Assembly (NCBI GenBank): GCA_040753675.1
Contig: JBFMEB010000003.1
Location: 1,715-65,714, forward strand
Origin: Candidatus Omnitrophota bacterium
GTDB lineage: Bacteria > Omnitrophota > Gorgyraeia > JAHJTE01
Length of the DNA stretch: 64,000 bases
Reading direction: 5' to 3'
Position 1 is the stretch's first letter. Each line of letters begins with the position of its first letter. A program made the position numbers and the translations under genes. Positions 2,312 through 58,763 of this stretch are shown in pieces. The notes beneath the pieces were generated by a model. It saw nothing but the letters and a program-made list of their open reading frames with translations, had not been told where the DNA came from and ran no database searches.

Positions 2312-4070
2312 CTATAATCTCACTTTCAGATTTAATCTTTTCCTTTTCTGTAGCAATAATTTCTTTTTCAATGGCTTTAAATTCTTCTGATTGCCAGGGG
2401 CTTGAATTCCAACCTCGAAAAAGCTGCCTTAAGCTCTGGAAAAAGTGCAAAGCCTCTTCTTTGCTATCAAGTTTAAATTCTTGCTCTAAAATGTTTTGGT
2501 AGATAAAATTAAATGTATATTTTTGCCTTTCTTCGGATGTCGCCTCATCAACTGGGTCAAATGCATTCTGCTGCAGATAAACAAAATCAAAAAACTCACC
2601 CTTTAAATAATCTATGTAATCCGCTAAAGATGTTCCTTCTTCTCCCACAACCTTCATCATCTGCGCCACGTCAAAACTTTTTCGTAAGATTTCATGGCCT
2701 TTTTTTGCCTGTCTCTCATCTATAAAACTCTTATATTTGCTCCAGCTTATCAGTGGATCAATGGCAGGATAACGCCTTGCATTTGCGCGTTGGTTTGATA
2801 ATCCATGAAATGCGCCAACTACTTTTAAGGTGGCCTGGGTAACTGGCTCATCGAAATTTCCTCCAGCAGGGCTTACTGTCCCACCAATAGTTACAGAGCC
2901 CATTGAGCCGTCGTGTAATTTAACAATGCCGGCCCGTTCATAAAAAGAAGCGATGCGCGACTCTAAATAAGCAGGGAATGCCTCTTCACCGGGTATTTCT
3001 TCTAAACGGCCTGACATCTCGCGCATTGCCTGTGCCCAACGAGAGGTTGAATCTGCAAGAAGCAAAACATTTAATCCCATTTGTCGGTAATATTCGGCAA
3101 TTGTTACAGCAGTATAAACTCCTGATTCTCGTGCTGCTACTGGCATAGAACTGGTATTACACATTATCACTGTACGGTCACTCAAGGGTTTATTTGTGCG
3201 CGGGTCAATCAAATGCGGGAATGTTTTAAGAGTTTCCACTGCCTCACCTGCCCGCTCGCCGCATGCAGCAACGACAACAATGTCTACCTCAGCGTGGCGG
3301 CTGGTTAATTGTTGTAGCACAGTTTTACCAGAGCCAAATGGTCCTGGGATACAAAAGGTTCCACCTAAGGCAACTGGAAACAAGGAATCGATTAATCGCA
3401 TTTTGGTAACTAAAGTGCCCTGGGGTTTTAATTTTTCAGCATACGCAGAAATAGGAACCTTGACTGGCCAAACTTGTCTTAAAAAAACTTCATGAATCTT
3501 TCCCTGTGCATCTTTTAACTTTGCAATCGCTTGTTCTAAATTATATCTTCCTGGATTTGCTATCTGGACAACTTCAAGATTGCCCTTTAAGCTAAAAGGC
3601 GCCATAATAAAGTGCTTAAAAATCTTCTCTGGAACAAAGCCTAATTTTGCTCCGGCAAAAACAAAATCGCCAACTTTAGCAATAGGCGTAAAATCCCACT
3701 CGCTTTGTGAAGGAAGCGCCTGGATATAAACACCCCTTTTTAAAAAGAAACCATGATCTTTAGCCAAATCTGGCAAGGGATTTTGTAAGCCATCAAATAT
3801 CTGGCCTAAAAGACCAGGCCCGAGTTCTACGCAAAGAAGCTCTCCCGTAAACTCCACTTCTTCTCCTACTTGAAGGCCAGAGGTATTTTCAAATACCTGC
3901 ATCTCAGCCTGCCTTGCGCGAATTCGTATAACCTCAGCTTTTAGCTGCTCTTTGCCATGCAAGACAAAAGCAACCTCATTCTGAATTATATTGTCCTCTG
4001 TTTGCGCAGATACCATATTGCCAATAATTTTTGTAATCCGGCCTTCCCTTTTCTCTCTCATATTCATCAA
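2304..4070 (-). CDS. atpA: V-type ATP synthase subunit A (catalytic)
   Basis: 588 aa with Walker A GPFGSGKT and a non-homologous insert region typical of V/A-type A subunits. Confidence 0.9.
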
Positions 4071-5207: not shown

Positions 5208-5299
5208 AACATTCTCCTACGTTTTTCTAAAACAGCTATCTGCTGTCTGGTATTTCAGTATGCTTTATACTGCTTTATCTGCTAAGTAATGCTACTATA

Positions 5300-5405
5300 T
5301 TTATATCAAATATTAAAAATTAAATATTAAAATTACATATCAAAGTTTAAAAATTTTAAATTTTACATTGTCATTTTGATTTTTACATTTTGATTTTTGC
5401 ATTAA
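5300..5405. repeat. AT-rich AAAATGACAATG-core palindromic repeat (copy R1, inverted)
   Basis: ttttacattgtcattttgatttttacattttgatttttgcatt. Core (RC) at 5366..5377. Confidence 0.6.
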
Positions 5406-5433: not shown

Positions 5434-6123
5434 CTAACTTATTATTTGCTTCAGCGCTAAAACCGGGTCTTTTGCTTCTAATATGGGTCTGCCAATAATT
5501 AAGAAATCGCTGCCTGCCTCAATAGCTTCTCCTGCGCTTGCCACTCTTTCCTGGTCATGGCTCAGCGCGCCTTTCGGCCTTATGCCAGGAGTAAAAATTA
5601 AAAAATTCCTTTTAATATTTTTTCTTAAAGCCCTTGCTTCTTTCGCTGAACAAACCACTCCGTCTAAACCGCAGCGCAGAGCAAGTTTTGCCAATTTCAA
5701 TACCCTGCCCGAACTTGCTTTTTGGCTGGTTAAAACCGTGACACCGATTAACAAAGGCCTGCGGTGATTTAGCCGCCGGGATTCCTCTTTTGCTGCCTTG
5801 ACTGCTGCTCTAAGCATTTCATCTTCGCCTTGAATATGGAGAGTAACCATCTTTACTTTTAAACGCACTGCCTGGCGCACTGCATTTCTAACTGTATTAG
5901 GGATATCGAAGAATTTTAAATCCAAAAAAACCTGGCCGCCTTTTTTTTGAATAAATTTAATTATGTCCGGGCCGGCTATGGTAAAAAGCTGCAATCCCAC
6001 CTTGAATATTTTTATTTTTGGATAAAGCCTGTTTACAAAATATTTGGCCTTCTTTAGACTATCGACATCTAAGGCGAGAGTCAATTTAGTTTTCAGTTGT
6101 CGGTTTTCAGTTGTCGGATTCAT
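5434..6123 (-). CDS. pyrF: orotidine 5'-phosphate decarboxylase
   Basis: 229 aa with DLKFFDIPNTV and DVD motifs characteristic of OMP decarboxylase. Confidence 0.85.
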   Translation of the reverse strand: MNPTTENRQLKTKLTLALDVDSLKKAKYFVNRLYPKIKIFKVGLQLFTIAGPDIIKFIQKKGGQVFLDLKFFDIPNTVRNAVRQAVRLKVKMVTLHIQGEDEMLRAAVKAAKEESRRLNHRRPLLIGVTVLTSQKASSGRVLKLAKLALRCGLDGVVCSAKEARALRKNIKRNFLIFTPGIRPKGALSHDQERVASAGEAIEAGSDFLIIGRPILEAKDPVLALKQIIS

Positions 6124-7049
6124 TCTTTTAGCGTTCCGATAAGATTTTTAATATTACTGATATTATTTTCTTTGAGATATTTTTTTATACCAGAAAGGAT
6201 TTCTTTGCTAGCGTTGAGATTGACAAAGTTTACTGTCCCTAAGGATAAGGCAGACGCACCACAGAGCAGATACTCAATTGCATCCTGGCTATTCATTATG
6301 CCGCCGCCTGCAATGATCTGTAATTTAACTGCACAAAATGTCTTATATGTTGCAAAAAGCCCTAATGGCTTTATTGCTGGACCGCTTAAGCCGCCAGTTA
6401 TATTTGCCAGGACAGGTTTTCTTTTATCAATATCTACTGCTAAACCAAAATATGTATTAACCAGAGAAACTGCGTCTGCGCCTGCTTCTTCGCTTGCAAG
6501 TGCAATTTCAGAAATATCAGTAACGTTGGGGGTAAGTTTTACGATTAGCGTCTTCTTGGTTAGCTTGCGTACTGATTTTACAACTTCGAAAGTTGATTTA
6601 GCATCCTGGGAAAACATCGTTTGACCGTGGACTTTTTTGATGTTTGGACAAGATATGTTTATCTCAATAGCTTTCAAACTAGAAATCTTATCTAAACGCT
6701 TTGTCAGTTGCGCAAATTCCTCGATACTTTCTCCCCCGATACTGACAATAACCGGAATTTTTAGCTTTGCTAAATACGGCAATTTTTCATCTAAAAAAGC
6801 ATCGATACCAGGATTATCTAAACCAATAGAATTGAGAAGCCCGCATGGAGTTTCGACTAAGCGTGGAGGAGGATTGCCTGGCCGCGGCTTTACTGTTATT
6901 GTCTTTGTGGTAATAGCGCCAAAATATTTAAGATCAACGAGACCTTCTAATTCCTGTGCATATCCAAAAGTCCCTGATGCAGCGATGAGAGGAGAAATAA
7001 GAGACAAATTGCCGATGCGAGTGGATAAATTTTTTTGCTTAGTTGTCAT
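6120..7049 (-). CDS. pyrD: dihydroorotate dehydrogenase catalytic subunit (class 1B type)
   Basis: 309 aa with TIM-barrel DHOD motifs (ASGTFGY, NSIGLDNPG, IIAGGGI). A PyrK-like electron-transfer subunit is encoded nearby. Confidence 0.85.
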   Translation of the reverse strand: MTTKQKNLSTRIGNLSLISPLIAASGTFGYAQELEGLVDLKYFGAITTKTITVKPRPGNPPPRLVETPCGLLNSIGLDNPGIDAFLDEKLPYLAKLKIPVIVSIGGESIEEFAQLTKRLDKISSLKAIEINISCPNIKKVHGQTMFSQDAKSTFEVVKSVRKLTKKTLIVKLTPNVTDISEIALASEEAGADAVSLVNTYFGLAVDIDKRKPVLANITGGLSGPAIKPLGLFATYKTFCAVKLQIIAGGGIMNSQDAIEYLLCGASALSLGTVNFVNLNASKEILSGIKKYLKENNISNIKNLIGTLKE

Positions 7050-7051
7050 AT

Positions 7052-7576
7052 TTATTGAAACTGTTCCTTAACTTTAGGCCGGGTGAAAAAGAAGATTATA
7101 GAAATATACCAAATCAAGGCAAGTGACCAGAAGACAACCATAATAATTGGCAATATCTTAATTATTGAATTATACCGCGATTCATAATCATTTCTGATTT
7201 GTTCCTGGTATTCTGGCTTATACATTTTAAAATTCTCTTGCATTGCCGCATCAAATACCTTCTTCAATTCTTGCTTTCCATCTACAGAAGTAATCATCTT
7301 ATTTATTTGGCTAAAACCCAAAAAACTAGGAATAAATAAAACTATCAATGCTAATCTTAAAATAATCTCTAATTTTCTCGCCCATTCCTTAAGCTGTAAA
7401 ATAAATATGCCGGCTACTAATCCTAAACCAGAAGACACTAAAGAAAACAGGGGCCTTGAATATGAGCTAACAGCTGAAACGCTCACTGAGTAAACTGAAC
7501 TTAATAAGCCTAACAATCCGGCAATTATAAAAATTATTCCAAATAGTGTCACGCCTTTTGACCTTTGCTGCCCCAT
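7052..7576 (-). CDS. integral membrane protein, function unknown
   Basis: 174 aa with multiple hydrophobic helices. Confidence 0.4.
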   Translation of the reverse strand: MGQQRSKGVTLFGIIFIIAGLLGLLSSVYSVSVSAVSSYSRPLFSLVSSGLGLVAGIFILQLKEWARKLEIILRLALIVLFIPSFLGFSQINKMITSVDGKQELKKVFDAAMQENFKMYKPEYQEQIRNDYESRYNSIIKILPIIMVVFWSLALIWYISIIFFFTRPKVKEQFQ

Positions 7577-7624: not shown

Positions 7625-8287
7625 TCAATATTTAAATTTGCCAGATGATAAATGTAAATGCTTTATATCAATTATTTCTTTAGGTTTACTGAAATCCCAG
7701 CGTTCAATTTTTCTGTCGTCAAATATAAAGATTTGAAGCGATTCATCATTAACTACCTGAAAAATCAGCCACTTATCAAAAGATAATCTTATATCAAGTG
7801 GCACTTCAGGTGTATAGCGATTTGGAGAAAAACTTACCTCATATTCATGTTCGCCTTCTCGACATATTGTTATTACTTTATACGCGAATGCTGATTTTAT
7901 TTTGTCTTCATACTGCTTATAAATTGGAAGATTCTCAATAAAGTTAATTAATTTCTTGACGTCGCTAATGGTACGAAAATTACGATATATTATATACGAG
8001 CTGTTCGCTCTTAGTGAAATAAACAGCGGATATATATTCCCCTTTTGACTCATAATATCAATATAAGCTAAGCTAATGAAATATTCATCCCCCTCTTTCG
8101 AACAACCATGGATACTAGTGTTAAATGTATTTAGATTAGCACCTATGGCAATCTGAAAGCGATTTTCTAATTGAGATGGGCAAGGCACAAAAGGTCTATC
8201 TGCAAAAGCATAATTCAGTGAATAATAAGTCAATAAAATAAATAAAAAACTTAGAAATAATATCTTTCTCATTTGCTTACTTCTCAA
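7625..8287 (-). CDS. secreted hypothetical protein
   Basis: 220 aa with an N-terminal signal peptide and several Cys residues. Confidence 0.4.
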   Translation of the reverse strand: MRSKQMRKILFLSFLFILLTYYSLNYAFADRPFVPCPSQLENRFQIAIGANLNTFNTSIHGCSKEGDEYFISLAYIDIMSQKGNIYPLFISLRANSSYIIYRNFRTISDVKKLINFIENLPIYKQYEDKIKSAFAYKVITICREGEHEYEVSFSPNRYTPEVPLDIRLSFDKWLIFQVVNDESLQIFIFDDRKIERWDFSKPKEIIDIKHLHLSSGKFKY

Positions 8288-12363: not shown

Positions 12364-12852
12364 TTAGGAATTAGAAATTTTTAAAAGTCTTATAACTTGT
12401 TTTATTGCCTCATCAACTGTTTGCGCCCTAATAACTCCCGGCACATCCCAAGATCCCAGGCTTATAACCGGTATGCCAAATTGCAGACAGTATGCTATCT
12501 CTGAAAGCGTACCCGCTTCACCTGGAAGAGCTATAACCACATCAGCGCTCTTTACCACCAGTACGTTTCTAGCCAAGCCTAACCCAGTTGGAATTACAAT
12601 ATCCACATATTTATTAGCATATTTTTTGTTGTAACTTGTTATAATTCCTATTGTTATGCCATTTCCATACTTAAAACCTTTACAAACTGATTCCATTACT
12701 CCACTTAAACCGCCACAAACAATAAAATCAACCACTTTAGCCAATTTTTTACCTAAATTTATGGCAATTTGCTCCACTTCTTTAGTACAGCTATGACCGC
12801 CTATAACTCCTACAATCTTCTTTCTCATCTCAAAAATAGTAGCGAGTAGCAA
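12364..12852 (-). CDS. TIGR00725/LOG-like Rossmann-fold nucleotide-binding protein
   Basis: GGxxGVMES and PGGxGTLSE motifs of the LOG/lysine-decarboxylase-like family. The true start is probably the internal Met at about 12828, because the first codons overlap a palindromic repeat element. Confidence 0.6.
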   Translation of the reverse strand: MLLATIFEMRKKIVGVIGGHSCTKEVEQIAINLGKKLAKVVDFIVCGGLSGVMESVCKGFKYGNGITIGIITSYNKKYANKYVDIVIPTGLGLARNVLVVKSADVVIALPGEAGTLSEIAYCLQFGIPVISLGSWDVPGVIRAQTVDEAIKQVIRLLKISNS

Positions 12853-12910
12853 GTAGAGAGTAGAGAGATTTTTTCTCGCTACTCGTTGCTCGCTACTCTC
12901 TACTTAACAT
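12836..12910. repeat. GTAGCGAG-type palindromic repeat element, copy A
   Basis: Hairpin-forming arms (agtagcgagtagcaagtagagag / ctcgctactcgttgctcgctactctctact). A near-identical copy in inverted orientation lies at 34343..34422. Confidence 0.7.
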
Positions 12911-34342: not shown

Positions 34343-34422
34343 ACTTAAAGTAGAGAGTAGCGAGAAACGAGTAGCGAGAAAAATGAAAAATCTCTCTACT
34401 TGCTACTCTCTACTCGCTACTT
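34343..34422. repeat. GTAGCGAG-type palindromic repeat element, copy B
   Basis: agtagagagtagcgagaaacgagtagcgag...ctctctacttgctactctctactcgctact. Reverse-complement match to copy A at 12836..12910. Confidence 0.7.
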
Positions 34423-34500
34423 AATAATGAAAATCAGCAGTTATCTGGGCTTGCCAAATCTTCTTGACTAAAAGACTTAATATGTTATAATTGGAAAACT

Positions 34501-37984: not shown

Positions 37985-38029
37985 GATACAGTAATTAATA
38001 GTGATTAGTAAAAAACAATTAGTTTTAAA

Positions 38030-38132
38030 TGCAAAAATCAAAGTGCAAAAATCAAAATGACAATGTAAAATTTAAAATTTTTGAATTTTTATATGTAATT
38101 TTGATATTTAATTTTTGATATTTGATTTTAAT
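38030..38132. repeat. AT-rich AAAATGACAATG-core palindromic repeat (copy R2)
   Basis: Nearly identical to 45736..45836. Core 12-mer at 38054..38065. Confidence 0.7.
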
Positions 38133-42931: not shown

Positions 42932-42939
42932 CCATAAAA

Positions 42940-43043
42940 TAAAATGCAAAAATCAAAAATCAAAAGTCAAAAATACAAATCAAAATTCAAAATTTTACAT
43001 TTTGCATTGTCATTTTGCATTTTGCATTTTGATATTTGAATTT
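42940..43043. repeat. AT-rich AAAATGACAATG-core palindromic repeat (copy R3)
   Basis: Near-perfect palindrome aaatgcaaaaatcaaaa...ttttgatatttgaattt. Core (RC) at 43011..43022. Confidence 0.6.
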
Positions 43044-43049
43044 ACTGTT

Positions 43050-45712: not shown

Positions 45713-45735
45713 AATAAACTAGCGAGGCTTTTTAA

Positions 45736-45836
45736 TTCAAAAATCAAAGTGCAAAAATCAAAATGACAATGTAAAATTTAAAATTTTTGAATTTTGATAT
45801 GTAATTTTGATATTTAATTTTTGATATTTTATTTTC
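45736..45836. repeat. AT-rich AAAATGACAATG-core palindromic repeat (copy R4)
   Basis: About 95 bp nearly identical to 38030..38132. Core 12-mer at 45760..45771. Confidence 0.7.
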
Positions 45837-52807: not shown

Positions 52808-53026
52808 TTATCTTAAGCCCTTGCAATTTTGTTGTCGCTATGATATACTTACTCTGCGAATATAGCCCTGCAGTGTTCGTTGGATAGATTGGATATTTTT
52901 TGAACCAACACAATCTTAAAGGGAGCTCGACTTCATCTGTGCTTGCGGGCAGGATGAGAGGCGCCCACGTGTAACAACAACGGTTCAGATTGCCCTATCC
53001 GACGACACAAGCGGGGTTTTTTATTT

Positions 53027-53154
53027 GCCCCGTTAGAGATAGGTCGCCTAAAGGCGACCGTAAATAGAAAAGATAACCTTTTAATTAGAGCTTTATCTCT
53101 TTTAGTGGGTATAAATCTCTTTAGAATATTTTTTAGAGTACATCTCTAACGGGG
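53027..53154. repeat. TIR-bounded about 128 bp element X1 (CCCCGTTAGAGATAG ... ATCTCTAACGGGG) in the rarA leader
   Basis: 13-14 bp terminal inverted repeats with an internal hairpin ggtcgcc-taaa-ggcgacc right after the left end. A second copy lies at 55156..55282. Confidence 0.65.
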
Positions 53155-53165
53155 TGGAGTTACTT

Positions 53166-54533
53166 ATGAGAAATAGCCAGTCAAAAGACTTATTTTTAGA
53201 TACAGAACTTAGCAGCAATTTTGATAAAGACAGGCCGTTAGCTGTTCGTATGCGGCCAGTTAGTCTCGATGAGTTCGTAGGCCAAGAGCATATCTTGGCA
53301 AAGGGGCGCTTACTGCGTAGGTCTATTGAAGCAGACAGGCTGACCTCTGTTATTTTTTATGGCCCGCCCGGGACAGGTAAGACTTCCCTTGCCTATTGCA
53401 TAAGCAAGGTAACCCAGGCACATTTCGAACCGATTAACGCAGTTGATTCTAACGTAAAAGAATTGCGCAAGGTTACCCAGGCAGCAAAACTGCGCCGAAG
53501 AAACTCCGGTAAAAAAACTATCCTCTTCATAGATGAAATCCATCACTTCACAAAACCGCAGCAGGATGTTTTAAATCCTTTTGTTGAAGACCAGACAGTT
53601 ATCTTAATCGGCTCTACTGTTTTTAATCCTTTCTTTTCTCTAAACAGCGCTCTTTTATCCCGGTCATTAGTATTCAGTCTTAATCCTTTAACTGAAAAAG
53701 AGATAACTAAAATTATCCAGAGAGCACTCTCTGATAAGAAACGCGGATTAGGCGAATTAGATGTAGTTTTAGAAAAAGGTGCCCTTGATTTTATCTCTAA
53801 AATTTCAGAAGGTGATGCGCGCAGGGCGTTAAATGCGTTAGAGGTTGCAGTTCTTAGCACAGAAACTGATAAATATGGTAAAATTACTTTAACGCTTTCC
53901 ATAATGGAAGAGTCAATACAGAGAAAGGCAGTTGTTTACGACAGGGACGGCGATGCGCATTATGATTCAATCTCCGCATTTATAAAATCAATGCGTGGCT
54001 CTGACCCGGATGCAACTCTTTATTGGCTGGCAAAGATGTTATATGCAGGCGAGGACCCGCGTTTTATTGCCCGCAGAATCTTTATCTGCGCTGCAGAAGA
54101 CGTTGGCAATGCCCAACCTCAGGCGCTTATTTTAGCAAATGCAGCAGCCCAGGCAGTGGAGTTTATAGGTATGCCTGAAGCGAGGATTGCCTTGGCCCAG
54201 GCAGCAGTTTTTGTTGCCTGCTCGCCGAAATCAAATGCCTCTTATATGGGTATTGAAAAGGCGCTGGAAGATGTTAAATCAGATAGAACCATGGAGGTGC
54301 CTAAGCATCTGCGCGATGCAAACTATCCCGGAGCTAAAATATTAGGCCACGGAAAAGATTATAAATATGCTCACGACTATGAAAAACATTTTGTAGAGCA
54401 GGATTATATACCAGAAAAAAAACAATACTATGTTCCGACTGTTATGGGTTATGAGGCAAAGATAAAACAGTGGCTGGAGGAGTTAAAGAGGGAAGAGAAA
54501 GATGATAGTAAGCAAAAAAAAGCCGATATCTGA
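53166..54533 (+). CDS. rarA: replication-associated recombination protein A (RarA/MgsA AAA+ ATPase)
   Basis: Walker A GPPGTGKTS, Walker B ILFIDEIH and a C-terminal MgsA-specific domain. ATG 53166 is the likely start, because the track start is GTG 53154 inside the repeat. Confidence 0.85.
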   Translation: MRNSQSKDLFLDTELSSNFDKDRPLAVRMRPVSLDEFVGQEHILAKGRLLRRSIEADRLTSVIFYGPPGTGKTSLAYCISKVTQAHFEPINAVDSNVKELRKVTQAAKLRRRNSGKKTILFIDEIHHFTKPQQDVLNPFVEDQTVILIGSTVFNPFFSLNSALLSRSLVFSLNPLTEKEITKIIQRALSDKKRGLGELDVVLEKGALDFISKISEGDARRALNALEVAVLSTETDKYGKITLTLSIMEESIQRKAVVYDRDGDAHYDSISAFIKSMRGSDPDATLYWLAKMLYAGEDPRFIARRIFICAAEDVGNAQPQALILANAAAQAVEFIGMPEARIALAQAAVFVACSPKSNASYMGIEKALEDVKSDRTMEVPKHLRDANYPGAKILGHGKDYKYAHDYEKHFVEQDYIPEKKQYYVPTVMGYEAKIKQWLEELKREEKDDSKQKKADI

Positions 54534-55164
54534 TATTTTAAAGTCACTTCATAATTACAATAAGATATTTATTATTGGTTGCGGGACTTGTTCAACTACC
54601 TGCAAAAGCGGCGGAGAGGCGGAGGTTAATTGGATAAAAGACGAACTCATCAGGGCAGGCAAAACCGTTACCGGCTCAACAGTTATTGAATCACCTTGCA
54701 TTGCATCCCAGGTTAAGGTTGACTTTGCTAAAAATAGAAAATTGCTTAGCCAGTCTCAGGCAATTCTGGTAATGGCCTGCGGTTCAGGCGTGCAGTCAGT
54801 GCTTGAGAATGACAGATTGTCTTTAAGGGTTTTGCCCGGATGTGATACTCTCTTTGCTGCGGCAATCGACGCTAGTAACGCATTTCGTGAATATTGTTCT
54901 CATTGTGGCCAATGCGTGTTGGATATTACCGGCGGCATTTGCCCGGTTACTCGCTGCGCAAAAGGTCTTCTTAACGGGCCTTGCGGAGGAATGAATAAAG
55001 GCAAATGCGAAGTGGATAAAGACCAGGATTGCGCCTGGGTGCTTATTTATAAACAGGCAACTAAACAAAATAATCTCGAGGCTGTTAAGGCAATTCAGCC
55101 GCCAAAGGATCATTCAAAGACAATAAAACCGCATAAGCTTATATTGGAGAATAAACCCCGTTAG
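54502..55164 (+). CDS. Cys-rich protein resembling the methylenetetrahydrofolate reductase C-terminal (MetV-like) domain
   Basis: 220 aa with multiple Cys clusters (CGTCSTTC, CSHCGQC, CPVTRC, NGPCGG). The LNGPCGG motif is recalled from MTHFR_C-type proteins. Overlaps the rarA 3' end. Confidence 0.4.
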   Translation: MIVSKKKPISDILKSLHNYNKIFIIGCGTCSTTCKSGGEAEVNWIKDELIRAGKTVTGSTVIESPCIASQVKVDFAKNRKLLSQSQAILVMACGSGVQSVLENDRLSLRVLPGCDTLFAAAIDASNAFREYCSHCGQCVLDITGGICPVTRCAKGLLNGPCGGMNKGKCEVDKDQDCAWVLIYKQATKQNNLEAVKAIQPPKDHSKTIKPHKLILENKPR

Positions 55165-55282
55165 AGATAGTCCGCCAAATTTATTTAGCGGACGTAATGG
55201 GGTAGTATTTGGAATTAAACTTTTTCTTATAGAAGCGAATTAGATATTAAGAATATATTTTGTAACAAATCTCTAAACGGGG
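55156..55282. repeat. TIR-bounded about 127 bp element X2 upstream of iscU
   Basis: Same termini as X1 (ccccgttagagatag ... atctctaaacgggg). Internal hairpin gtccgc...gcggac. The stop codon of the preceding gene lies inside the left terminus. Confidence 0.65.
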
Positions 55283-55291
55283 TAAATAATC

Positions 55292-55702
55292 ATGCAGCCA
55301 TACAGCGATAAAGTTATGGATCATTTTTTGCACCCAAGGAATGTTGGAGAAATCTCAGATGCTGACGGCATAGGTAATGTAGGCAACCCAGTATGTGGTG
55401 ACGTCTTAAGATTGTATTTAAAAATAAAAGATGGCATTATTAGTGAAGCGAAATTTAAAACCTTTGGCTGTGGTGCTGCTATTGCAACCAGTTCAATGGT
55501 TACAGAGTTAGTGAAAGGCAAGACAGTTCAAGAGGCATTAAACATATCTAATAAGGCAGTTGCCGAGGCATTGGGCGGCTTGCCAAAGATTAAGATGCAT
55601 TGTTCGGTCTTGGCTGAAGAGGCGTTAAAAGCAGCAATAGAAGATTATCAAAAAAAGTTATCTCCAAATGAAAAAACAGACGCTAAGAAAAATAATGCGT
55701 AA
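55292..55702 (+). CDS. iscU: Fe-S cluster assembly scaffold protein IscU/NifU-like
   Basis: NPRNVG, GNPVCGD, FKTFGCGAAIATSS and HCSVLAEEAL motifs. Confidence 0.85.
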   Translation: MQPYSDKVMDHFLHPRNVGEISDADGIGNVGNPVCGDVLRLYLKIKDGIISEAKFKTFGCGAAIATSSMVTELVKGKTVQEALNISNKAVAEALGGLPKIKMHCSVLAEEALKAAIEDYQKKLSPNEKTDAKKNNA

Positions 55703-56216
55703 ACGTCTTAAAAATCAGAAGGAGGTTTATAGACGTAAAAAAAGTGGTATAATTAAAAATAAGTTATTTAAATTAAACGAATTCAAAAAAGCAAAGACAG
55801 TGATGCTTTATGCGTCATTTGATGGTGAGGTAGATACGTTTAAGATGATTAAAGGGGCTATTAAAGAAGGCAAAACAGTTATTTTGCCTGCTATAGCAAA
55901 GAGAAAGAAGAGATTGATTCCCCGGGCAATTGAGACACTTCGTGATTTAGAAAAAGGCCCATTCGGCATATTGGAGCCGAGAAAGGCTTGCTCGCGGGTT
56001 ATTAGTAAGAAGAATTTAGACTTAGTCATTGTTCCAGGCTTGGCTTTTGATAAGGAAAATTTTCGTTTAGGCAGAGGGCTTGGTTTTTATGACCGTTTTT
56101 TAGCCGGGCTGCCTAGAAAGACCCAGGCAATTGGGCTTTGTTTTGATTTCCAAATCGTCTCTTCAGTCCCTCGCTTTTCCTCTGATCTACCTGTCAGTAA
56201 AGTCATCAGCGCATAA
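55668..56216 (+). CDS. 5-formyltetrahydrofolate cyclo-ligase
   Basis: 182 aa with MTHFS-family motifs (YASFDGEVDT, ILEPR, LDLVIVPGLAFDKENFRLGRGLGFYDRFL). Confidence 0.7.
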   Translation: MKKQTLRKIMRKRLKNQKEVYRRKKSGIIKNKLFKLNEFKKAKTVMLYASFDGEVDTFKMIKGAIKEGKTVILPAIAKRKKRLIPRAIETLRDLEKGPFGILEPRKACSRVISKKNLDLVIVPGLAFDKENFRLGRGLGFYDRFLAGLPRKTQAIGLCFDFQIVSSVPRFSSDLPVSKVISA

Positions 56217-56327: not shown

Positions 56328-57899
56328 ATGTCAGGTGGCTCAAGTATATTAATGTTTTTAATCGGCCTGGCTGGAGTTGCCTTTAGTGTCTACGCAGGTT
56401 TTCTGATTGCAAATTATATATTAAAACGCAGATTAGCCCTGAATAAACAGAAGAGCCAGCAGATGTTAGAAGAGGCAAAACAGGAGGCAGAAAAGATTCG
56501 CAAAGATGCGCAGTTAGAGGCAAAAGACTTGCTATATCGGCTACGCATTGATTTTGAGAAAGAGACAAAAGACCGTCGGCAAGAATTAAGCAACATGGAA
56601 AAGCGTATGCTCTCCAAAGAAGAAAATATTGACCGGCGGGTGGAGTTGTTAGAAAGAAAAGAGAAAGAAGTTGAGTCTAAACAGAATGCAGTGCACAGCT
56701 TAGAAAACAATCTGCGCGTTAAAGAGCAGCACTTAGATGGCTTGGTCAAGGAAGAAAAAGAAAGATTGCAGAGGATTTCTTCCCTTACCCCGCAACAGGC
56801 AAGAGAGTTGTTGCTTTCCCGCTTGGAACAGGAATTAAGCAATGAAAAGGCGGTTTTGTTAAAAAATATGGAAGACCAAATAAAAGAAAACGCTGCAAAA
56901 AAAGCCCAGGAAATAGTTGCCTTGGCAATTCAGCGCAGCTGCGTAGAGCATACTACAGAATCTACGGTAAGTGTAGTTGCACTGCCTAATGATGAAATGA
57001 AAGGCAGGATAATAGGCAGAGAAGGCAGGAATATTCGGGCTTTTGAAATGGCTACTGGCATTGACGTAATTATTGATGATACGCCAGAGGCAGTGATTCT
57101 ATCCGGATTTGACGTAGTGCGCAGAGAAGTTGCGCGGGTTGCCTTGGAAAAATTAATCTCCGATGGCCGAATACACCCAGGCAGGATTGAAGAGATAGTT
57201 GAAAAAGCCAAAAAAGACATGGAGATTAATATTCGCGAAGAAGGAGAGAAAGCAGCTTTTGATATCGGCATTCACGGCCTTCATCCGGAGCTTATTAAAC
57301 TTTTGGGCCGATTAAAATATCGCACTAGTTTTGGTCAGAATGCCCTGCAGCATTCTAAAGAAGTGGCTTATCTTATGGGAGTGATGGCGTCGGAGTTGGG
57401 TGCAGATTTTAAGCTAAGCCGGCGCATAGGCCTGCTTCACGATATTGGGAAGGCAGTAGACCAGGATGTTGAAGGAACGCATGCAAAAATCGGAGCAGAA
57501 CTGGCAAAAAAATTCGGCGAATCCAATGAGGTGGTTAACGCCATTGCCGCCCATCATGAAGAAATAGAATTGAATTCATTTTATTCTGTTCTTTCTGCTG
57601 CGGCAGATGCTATCAGCGCTGCCAGGCCAGGCGCCCGGCGCGAAACTCTGGAGACTTACGTAAAACGTTTAGATAAACTTGAATCAATAGCCAATGTATT
57701 TCCTGGAGTAGAGAAAGCGTTTGCAATTCAGGCTGGCCGCGAGGTCAGGATTATTGTCCAGCCGGAGAAAATTACCGATGCAGAGGCGGTTAATCTTGCG
57801 CGCGATGTTCGTAAGAAGATAGAAGAAGGAATGGAATATCCCGGACAGATCAAAGTAACAGTTATCCGCGAGACCAGGGCGATAGAGATCGCTAAATAA
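56328..57899 (+). CDS. rny: ribonuclease Y
   Basis: N-terminal TM, a coiled coil, KH domain ([13 protein letters not shown]) and HD domain (LLHDIGKA). Confidence 0.9.
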
Positions 57900-57902
57900 A
57901 TT

Positions 57903-57992
57903 TAAATATCAAATTGCAAAATGTAAAATGACAATGTAAAATTTTAAATTTTTATTTGTAATTTTGATATTTGATTTTTGATATTTGATTTT
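57903..57992. repeat. AT-rich AAAATGACAATG-core palindromic repeat (copy R5)
   Basis: atgtaaaatgacaatgtaaaat...ttttgatatttgatttttgatatttgatttt. Core at 57926..57937. Confidence 0.6.
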
Positions 57993-58763
57993 ATGAGAGT
58001 ACTATTTATAGGCGATATAGTAGGCAGGCCAGGCAGAGAGACAATTGCCAAGCTTCTACCAGGGCTAAAGAAAGAATTTAATCTGGATTTGATTTTAGCC
58101 AATGCTGAAAATGCTGCCGGGGGCTCCAGCATCACTGCCTCAGTTGCTAATGAATTATTTAGTGCTGGCGTTGATGCCTTAACCAGCGGCGACCATATCT
58201 TCAAAAAGAAAGAAGTTTTTGAGATTATTGCTCATCCTAGGATCTTGCGTCCGGCAAACTTTCCTGAAAATGTCCCTGGCAAAGGCCATATTTTAATAAA
58301 CAAAGACAGCAATAAAGTTTTAATTATAAACTTGCAGGGAAGGGTTTTTATGAGCCCTATAGATTGCCCCTTTAGGGTAGCGCGCAATATCTTAGCTGGT
58401 GTAGAGGATACCAAGATTATTATTGTGGATATGCATGCTGAGGCAACCAGCGAAAAGATAGCCCTTGGCTGGTTTTTAGATGGTAAGGTAAGCGCGATAT
58501 TCGGGACTCATACTCACGTTCAGACAGCGGATGAGTGTATTTTGCCCGAGGGGACTGCTTTTATAACTGATGTTGGCATGACCGGCTCTTGCGCTTCTGT
58601 TATTGGCAGAAAAAAAGAGCAGATTATCGAACGTTTCCTAAGCGGGATTCCAACCCGTTTCGAATTAGCCAAAGGCGATGAACAGTTGCAAGGTGCAGTA
58701 GTAGATATCGACGAGAAAACTGGTAAGGCAAGGTCGATTGAGAGAATAAAGCGCAAAGCATAG
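57993..58763 (+). CDS. ymdB: YmdB-like TIGR00282 metallophosphoesterase (2',3'-cyclic-nucleotide phosphodiesterase)
   Basis: MRVLFIGDIVGRPGR...ANAENAAGG...GDH motifs. Conserved position downstream of rny. Confidence 0.8.
   Translation: MRVLFIGDIVGRPGRETIAKLLPGLKKEFNLDLILANAENAAGGSSITASVANELFSAGVDALTSGDHIFKKKEVFEIIAHPRILRPANFPENVPGKGHILINKDSNKVLIINLQGRVFMSPIDCPFRVARNILAGVEDTKIIIVDMHAEATSEKIALGWFLDGKVSAIFGTHTHVQTADECILPEGTAFITDVGMTGSCASVIGRKKEQIIERFLSGIPTRFELAKGDEQLQGAVVDIDEKTGKARSIERIKRKA

Follow-up and report, generated by a model that had tools for sequence, protein, structure and literature searches.

The window analysed here is a stretch of 64,000 nucleotides from a Candidatus Omnitrophota bacterium (contig JBFMEB010000003.1), and this study concerns two short repeats in it, elements X1 (53028..53154) and X2 (55156..55282), which lie just upstream of genes rarA and iscU. 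X1 ends 13 nt before the ATG of rarA (53168) and X2 ends 9 nt before that of iscU (55292); they display the same orientation and bracket rarA together with a gene for a Cys-rich protein (MTHFR C-terminal-like, Pfam PF12225). The 6S RNA gene (52862-53021, plus strand; Rfam RF00013, 53.7 bits) is directly upstream of X1, and a 5-formyl-tetrahydrofolate (5-formyl-THF) cyclo-ligase gene (55668-56216, plus strand) occurs 2.6 kb downstream.

Both elements are 127 nt long and no open reading frame (ORF) was found inside either of them. X1 starts with the terminal inverted repeat CCCCGTTAGAGAT (53028..53040, plus strand, an exact 13-mer) and finishes with ATCTCTAACGGGG (53142..53154, plus strand), its exact reverse complement. 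In X2, the first copy of CCCCGTTAGAGAT (55156..55168, plus strand) holds the TAG (55162-55164) that now ends the Cys-rich ORF, and the second repeat, ATCTCTAAACGGGG (55269..55282, plus strand), is the reverse complement of CCCCGTTAGAGAT with one inserted A. Two bases after the left terminus, each element displays a GC-rich hairpin: GGTCGCC, loop TAAA, GGCGACC in X1 (53042..53059) and GTCCGC ... GCGGAC in X2 (55170..55193). The two sequences differ and yet each pairs perfectly, and across the family the hairpin covaries (see below). Predicted RNA folds were very stable (X1: -50.4 kcal/mol, z -7.0; X2: -35.5 kcal/mol, z -4.0). X2 is directly flanked by two copies of the tetranucleotide TAAA (55152..55155 and 55283..55286), a target-site duplication recognised from the sequence, from the tight junction obtained on removing the element and from the duplication statistics of the family.

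Beyond the four X1 and X2 ends, the terminus 13-mer had no match in the 64 kb at up to 2 mismatches, and four terminus matches were reached in none of 100 shuffles. Likewise, X1 (E 4.6e-14, minus strand) and X2 (E 7.6e-8, minus strand) were the only matches in the window of a profile hidden Markov model (HMM) built from the family described below. Identity of the interiors was 0.67 between X1 and X2, no higher than the 0.65-0.68 obtained when either was compared with copies of other phyla (family background, 0.58). No Rfam family covered X1 or X2, neither at gathering score over the whole window nor at E values up to 10 over the region, where the nearby 6S RNA was the sole match. A promoter and terminator scan gave nothing beyond shuffled expectation, and the elements are without intrinsic terminator.

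A first-pass annotation, drawn from the DNA letters, had already described two elements of about 128 bp with terminal inverted repeats of 13-14 bp, in direct orientation around rarA and the Cys-rich gene. It had noted a hairpin with compensatory changes directly after the left terminus, diverged AT-rich interiors, an ATG shortly after each element and the stop codon of the preceding gene inside the X2 left terminus. Apart from the one-base shift in the start of X1, this description stood. It had further proposed that the right terminus contributes the Shine-Dalgarno region, which must be divided: for rarA the GGAG belongs to the flank and not to the element, while for iscU the terminal GGGG of X2 lies about where the displaced GGAG was. 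The extra partial right end that it saw at 53012 (cgggg) turned out to be the terminator stem of the 6S RNA gene and is unrelated.

The gene order pheS, pheT, 6S, rarA, Cys-rich gene, iscU, 5-formyl-THF cyclo-ligase gene, rny and ymdB was kept in two related Omnitrophota genomes (L128 and L129). Nucleotide identity of L128 to the window was 81-89% over aligned rarA-ymdB segments and 70-86% over pheS-pheT segments, and its Cys-rich protein was 92% identical to the window copy; identity of L129 was about 70%. Neither relative contained X1, X2 or any match to the family profile, including upstream of rarA and iscU. The stop codon of the Cys-rich gene and the start codon of iscU share bases in L129 (TAATG). 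Deleting X2 and one TAAA from the window produced the junction ..TTGGAGAATAAATAATCATG (also given as ..GAGAATAAATAATCATG), which is as tight as that of L129 and aligns across it. In this reconstructed state the Cys-rich protein ends in ..LENK, with its stop two bases before the iscU ATG; through the insertion of X2 it therefore gained two residues (Pro-Arg) and a new stop codon. X1 sits between the 6S terminator and the rarA Shine-Dalgarno sequence, where both relatives carry other, shorter sequence. That X1 and X2 might delimit a mobile two-gene cassette was rejected, since gene content and order are unchanged in the relatives, which lack both elements.

Some further features of this locus were recorded. 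The pairing of 6S RNA with 5-formyl-THF cyclo-ligase, which is that of ssrS and ygfA in E. coli, here spans rarA, the Cys-rich gene and iscU, and in the same order in L128 and L129. In L128, about 130 nt of unrelated palindromic filler containing GTCATA/TATGAC repeats (5652-5783) take exactly the position of X2 at the Cys-rich/iscU junction, and the iscU gene that follows (5784-7316) contains an intein with a LAGLIDADG domain. Exact-sequence look-ups for the window IscU and Cys-rich proteins found neither on record.

X1 and X2 belong to a family which is widely distributed. Its miniature members were searched for in one genome per species as CCCGTTAGAGAT, 85-115 bases and ATCTCTAACGGG (exact termini of 12 + 12 nt), which recovered elements of about 120 nt at no fewer than 120 genome loci in at least eight phylum-level groups. 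Hosts were Patescibacteria (Saccharibacteria, Paceibacterota, Nomurabacteria and others), Omnitrophota, Planctomycetota, Elusimicrobiota, Ratteibacteria, Ignavibacteria and one metagenome-assembled genome (MAG) from Clostridia. Several copies per genome occur, such as four in Paceibacterota SMAG_U8125 or the two of this window. Variant or intermediate elements of about 190-235 nt also exist. Searching the literature by terminus sequence returned chance primer matches only; the family appears undescribed in the searchable literature, although paywalled work could hold it.

Comparison of 124 extracted mini-elements revealed a common plan. With the hairpin drawn on the left, it reads TNNA flank, Y-CCCGTTAGAGAT, AG, hairpin, GT, about 70 nt of unalignable AT-rich DNA, ATCTCTAACGGG-R and a second TNNA flank, and conservation ends five bases outside the 12-mers (-5/+5). 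Y complements R in these copies (T with A, or C with G), so that both bases count as part of the inverted repeat. The hairpin is perfect, with a median stem of 7 bp and a loop of mostly 3-4 nt. Its stems comprised 89 different sequences among 112 copies, all perfectly paired, so it is the structure and not the sequence that is maintained. Sub-families also vary jointly on both arms at the inner three terminus positions (GAGAC/GTCTC, GAAAT/ATTTC and GAGGC/GCCTC). Such covariation is equally expected for a DNA hairpin and for matched transposon ends, and does not separate selection at the DNA level from selection at the RNA level. Both patterns fit a small nuclease recognising folded terminus and hairpin.

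These data bear on the preference of the first-pass annotation, which took X1 and X2 for a functional RNA or cis-regulatory leader. On this explanation they would be structured leaders, or small RNAs, that serve rarA and iscU, and their functional fold would consist of the long closing stem and the covarying hairpin. The covariation on which it relied is real, the predicted folds are very stable and both copies precede start codons on the sense strand. Yet the hairpin belongs to a mobile element: members of the family adjoin unrelated genes in both orientations, display target-site duplications (see below) and, for X1 and X2, are missing from the same intergenic positions of two syntenic relatives. 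In addition, Rfam gave no match, the interiors are unalignable and the arms of the stem are conserved in sequence and not merely in pairing. We consider the leader explanation extremely improbable. The annotation had mentioned a miniature inverted-repeat transposable element (MITE) as its alternative, and had named many copies at random sites with target-site duplications as the result that would support one; with copies beside unrelated genes in many phyla, this is the side on which the outcome fell.

The origin of the mini-elements was indicated by longer elements with the same ends. On a Ratteibacteria contig (L097), these termini enclose 277 nt encoding an 86-aa protein (MFYTYILKSEKDGGWYTG...KRFLSLTG), which matched Pfam GIY-YIG (PF01541, E 1.5e-16, residues 1-69). 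The full-length form consists of 14-nt terminal inverted repeats, YCCCGTTAGAGAT ... ATCTCTAACGGGR, around one single-domain GIY-YIG gene of 86 codons. Among solved structures the nuclease was closest to the UPF0213 protein BH0048 (1ZG2, E 6e-10), with 1YWL (UPF0213) also near and Slx1 weak. Metagenomes searched for termini 240-270 nt apart yielded at least 120 full-length loci, 272-289 nt long (mode 277), whose ORFs end in ..RFLSLT(G). A protein search with the nuclease recovered 4587 clusters, mostly of 86 aa; the best matches were 74-91% identical across Omnitrophota, Planctomycetota, Elusimicrobiota, WOR-3, several lineages of the candidate phyla radiation (CPR) and a Flavobacteriales MAG, and ..FLSLTG was present in 15 of 20 proteins inspected. 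Neither PLSDB plasmids, searched by tblastn, nor PADLOC defence models gave a match.

The relationship between both size classes is particularly clear at the hairpin end. The last codons of the nuclease (..KRFLSLTG) are the subterminal hairpin and the terminus themselves, the CCCCGTTAGAGAT end encoding ..SLTG on the opposite strand; relative to this ancestral ORF, X1 and X2 thus lie antisense, and they are assigned to the minus strand. In full-length copies the same stem is formed by K-R and K-R-F codons, where an excess of pairing at synonymous sites was not significant (p 0.24). Matches of mini-elements to the full-length profile were confined to its two ends, about positions 1-30 and 250-287 (for X1, 3-19 and 259-286). 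Together, the shared ends and these end-only matches identify X1 and X2 as internally deleted, MITE-like derivatives of the GIY-YIG element. One 134-nt mini-element (L019) retained the first 23 nuclease codons and is thus a deletion intermediate.

Two loci are noted individually. The L097 element (2566-2842, minus strand) lies in a prepilin leader, where its nuclease ORF continues in frame into the pilin (..FLSLTG followed by FTFLEISLVILVIG); the junction restores K-G-F-T, which preserves the motif for the prepilin peptidase. Locus L145 carries two 100% identical variant elements (2132-2410 and 7873-8151) with an ORF ending in ..KFFFSDL and a stop inside the terminus. This pair lies in a larger duplication with flanks only about 93% identical, which may reflect gene conversion.

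The flanks of the elements displayed clear traces of insertion, and for full-length copies filled sites could be paired with empty ones. The inner two bases of the TNNA flanks were identical as a direct repeat in 68 of 111 mini-elements, where about 7 were expected, and as an inverted repeat in 8. A perfect 4-bp direct duplication was found in 61 of the 111 (about 0.4 expected) and in 33 of 89 full-length copies. Targets are T-N-N-A in both size classes, mostly (A)TGAA or TAAA, and the commonest configuration was ATGAA / T-CCCG...CGGG-A / TGAA. Of 48 TGAA duplications, 47 had an A before the left copy, which makes ATGAA the target, a start codon followed by AA.

This preference has consequences for both host and element. 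The last base of the element and the duplicated TG rebuild an ATG or GTG, and host ORFs of 60 codons or more began at the rebuilt start in 35 of 75 full-length copies and in 45 of 104 mini-elements (plus 15 in the opposite orientation). The earlier suggestion that termini supply translation signals has some merit in this family-wide sense, the element end and the duplicated target together restoring host start codons. The element itself encodes no stop for the nuclease ORF, which is closed by a TGA or TAA belonging to the right-hand duplication; this stop overlaps the rebuilt ATG to give ATGA. Of 24 full-length copies at start codons, 15 had the original host ATG in frame with the nuclease ORF through the terminus (M-N-P-V-R-D..), so the element can use the translation start of its host. 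A small ORF running across mini-elements from host ATG to rebuilt ATG was also considered and rejected, the frame being stopped internally in 30 of 30.

The explanation we favour, with a probability of roughly 0.85, is that X1 and X2 are miniature non-coding derivatives of the 277-bp GIY-YIG mobile element, inserted at gene boundaries, and not leaders. They display what is found in MITEs: short non-coding sequences with inverted repeats, many unrelated sites, a coding partner with the same ends, presence or absence at orthologous positions and target duplication (in X2 and the family, X1 being without). Family membership, the duplication, absence from the orthologous sites and the ends held in common with the GIY-YIG form were all observed directly here. 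In the proposed course of events, X2 would have inserted into TAAA at the junction of Cys-rich stop and iscU start, and X1 into the stretch from the 6S RNA terminator to the ribosome-binding site of rarA. A nuclease supplied in trans by a full-length copy elsewhere would recognise terminus and hairpin and mobilise the mini-elements. Location at gene boundaries, start and stop codons included, would follow from a target made of start and stop codon letters and from selection against insertions inside the genes of compact genomes.

X1 and X2 are ordinary as local features and probably inert passengers. Their effects would be incidental, namely a Cys-rich protein lengthened by two residues and given a new stop, and an operon transcript with two very stable 127-nt stems. 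For the window, a false lead is thereby removed, the repeats being insertions, which explain why the Cys-rich protein has an odd C-terminus and why the 6S-rarA-iscU operon has two long structured spacers.

Several points weigh against this explanation. Members were retrieved by exact termini and two fixed gap ranges, and hence the invariance of termini and the two size classes are partly imposed. The flanks of X1, TTTG on the left and TGGA on the right, form no repeat. The 64-kb window contains no GIY-YIG gene, which leaves a trans-acting source in this genome putative. Recent independent identical copies were not found, the only identical pair being that of L145 inside a larger duplication. 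A sizeable minority of the family displays inverted 4-nt flanks (e.g. TTYAC...GTRAA or CTTGC...GCAAG). When filled and empty sites of full-length copies were compared, this class had a net gain of 4 bases, which are the reverse complement of the target tetranucleotide placed on the other side of the element, as in CCTCAA^CAAGGAA -> CCTCAA-CTTG-[element]-CAAG-GAA. An ordinary staggered cut does not produce such flanks; as a speculation, they might stem from a single-stranded intermediate that is folded back and filled in. Finally, GIY-YIG enzymes are hydrolytic nucleases, none of which is known to perform strand transfer. The inverted-flank comparison relied on a full-length sub-family with CTTG...CAAG flanks (L205, L178 and L201 versus L180 and L149; L183 versus L243), the empty sites being paralogous.

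That GIY-YIG nucleases are not known for strand transfer also speaks for another possibility, in which X1 and X2 would be MITEs moved by a conventional transposase (e.g. DDE) encoded elsewhere, the GIY-YIG ORF being cargo or a hitch-hiker. The CCC... termini and the 4-bp TNNA duplication may resemble piggyBac/IS1380-type ends. However, none of the terminus pairs in the 1.6 Mb of loci fetched, a set biased by its retrieval, spanned more than about 290 nt. Moreover, terminus and hairpin code for the end of the nuclease in thousands of protein clusters and the stop is derived from the target duplication, an integration which is unexpected for cargo. We regard a conventional transposase as unlikely.

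Among described systems, the closest was that of the Ssn nucleases (Chenal et al. 2025, PMC11893778), the only relevant paper found on searching the literature for GIY-YIG with inverted repeats, MITE, CPR, UPF0213 or YhbQ. Ssn are single-domain GIY-YIG proteins of about 94 aa. They bind to NTS/SRM, a hairpin repeat with a direction, and their cleavage is restricted to single-stranded DNA, at a position just upstream of the repeat. The ssn genes are flanked on both sides by the repeat, an architecture that the authors liken to insertion sequences, and the repeat also occurs in many gene-less copies, mostly outside genes. The likeness comprises a GIY-YIG-only nuclease of about 90 aa (here 86 aa, in a partner element outside the window), a gene bracketed by hairpin-forming repeats and gene-less copies. 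By analogy, an Ssn-like mode of working is the one we would prefer for the X1/X2 family, and its nuclease may act on folded single-stranded DNA as Ssn do.

The differences are equally marked. The SRM motif as published there (HGTCWY..YYVSBRH..WNVSBRG..RNCYNB) was found in 0 of 89 full-length elements, 0 of 123 mini-elements and at no site of the window; given this absence (0/212), the elements are not filed under the Ssn family. In contrast to the Ssn repeats, the present family has 14-nt terminal inverted repeats pairing with each other, a single subterminal hairpin and a terminus that codes for the end of the nuclease. Neither the sections of PMC11893778 consulted nor a term search of its text revealed target duplications of 4 bp, empty sites or a targeting of start codons, all of which were seen here.

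The Ssn system further suggests that X1 and X2 could be domesticated sites of a host GIY-YIG single-strand nuclease (like the NTS/SRM repeats of Neisseria), which in place of a purely selfish existence would mark the segment X1-rarA-CysRich-X2 and modulate recombination of incoming single-stranded DNA. The comparable small nuclease, the directional terminus and hairpin and the two direct-orientation copies bracketing two genes agree with this, and an NTS-gene-NTS layout is indeed reported to alter transformation (PMC11893778). Besides the missing SRM motif, however, the window has no nuclease gene and just two copies in 64 kb, and duplications together with absence from relatives point to recent insertion. 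Such a role is very unlikely in our opinion.

Other small elements were compared in turn. Bacterial MITEs such as the Correia elements of Neisseria are likewise non-coding, about 100-150 bp long, bounded by inverted repeats and short duplications, located at gene boundaries and transcribed in operons as long stems. Correia elements are usually attributed to conventional transposases and display a TA duplication, whereas here the partner with the same ends encodes a GIY-YIG nuclease, the duplication is TNNA and nearly identical termini occur in many phyla. With IS200/IS605 and REP/RAYT systems, the family shares very small size, a subterminal hairpin, gene-less amplified derivatives, insertion beside a tetra- or pentanucleotide and, if the putative action of the nuclease is accepted, a small enzyme working on single-stranded DNA. 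These systems rely on HUH (Y1) enzymes and have neither terminal inverted repeats nor target duplications, in contrast to the inverted repeats, 4-bp duplication and GIY-YIG partner ORF found here. Integron attC sites were rejected on core order, since GTTAGAG ... CTCTAAC is the reverse of RYYYAAC ... GTTRRRY and is the same on either strand. The free-standing seg homing genes of phage T4 resemble the full-length form as GIY-YIG genes lying between host genes as selfish units. Yet homing endonucleases possess additional DNA-binding domains, propagate when a cut allele at a single locus is repaired and lack inverted repeats and duplications, and viral contigs (IMG/VR) gave no match to either size class of the present family.

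It is possible, though we lean slightly against it, that the parent represents a new class of prokaryotic transposon, the smallest autonomous one at about 277 bp. It would be moved by its own 86-aa GIY-YIG nuclease acting on the folded terminus and hairpin, probably in single-stranded DNA, and would target (A)TGAA/TRAA at gene boundaries. Such an element would borrow the ribosome-binding site and start codon of its host, take its stop from the duplication and restore the host ATG as ATGA, making insertion nearly harmless; if true, this would explain the spread over CPR, Omnitrophota, Planctomycetota and Elusimicrobiota at 74-91% protein identity. X1 and X2 in any case lead to a very abundant cross-phylum family whose coding member has a GIY-YIG nuclease in place of any known transposase. 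The smallest insertion sequences known to us are about 700 bp, and the coding member is about 2.5 times shorter. Should the nuclease move the element, DNA would be transposed by a new enzymatic route, mobile relatives would exist for the recently described nucleases of Ssn type, and a compact, sequence-defined pair of nuclease and site would be available as a possible tool. The combination of start-codon targeting and translational coupling would provide a new case of a parasite that can persist in the very compact genomes of ultra-small bacteria.

Other repeats were recorded in the window. A second intergenic family is composed of AT-rich palindromes of about 107 nt made of CAAAAAT-like heptamers and their complement; two copies (38023-38129 and 45729-45835) were 96% identical, and weaker ones occurred at 5298-5404, 42938-43044 and 57886-58000. 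Long hairpins of tandem AGTAGMG heptamers paired with their complement were observed at two intergenic sites (12835-12910 and 34345-34425). A perfect 19-nt inverted repeat, ACCCAGCACTTATTTTACT, with 70 nt between its arms (266-284 and 355-373), occurred a single time.

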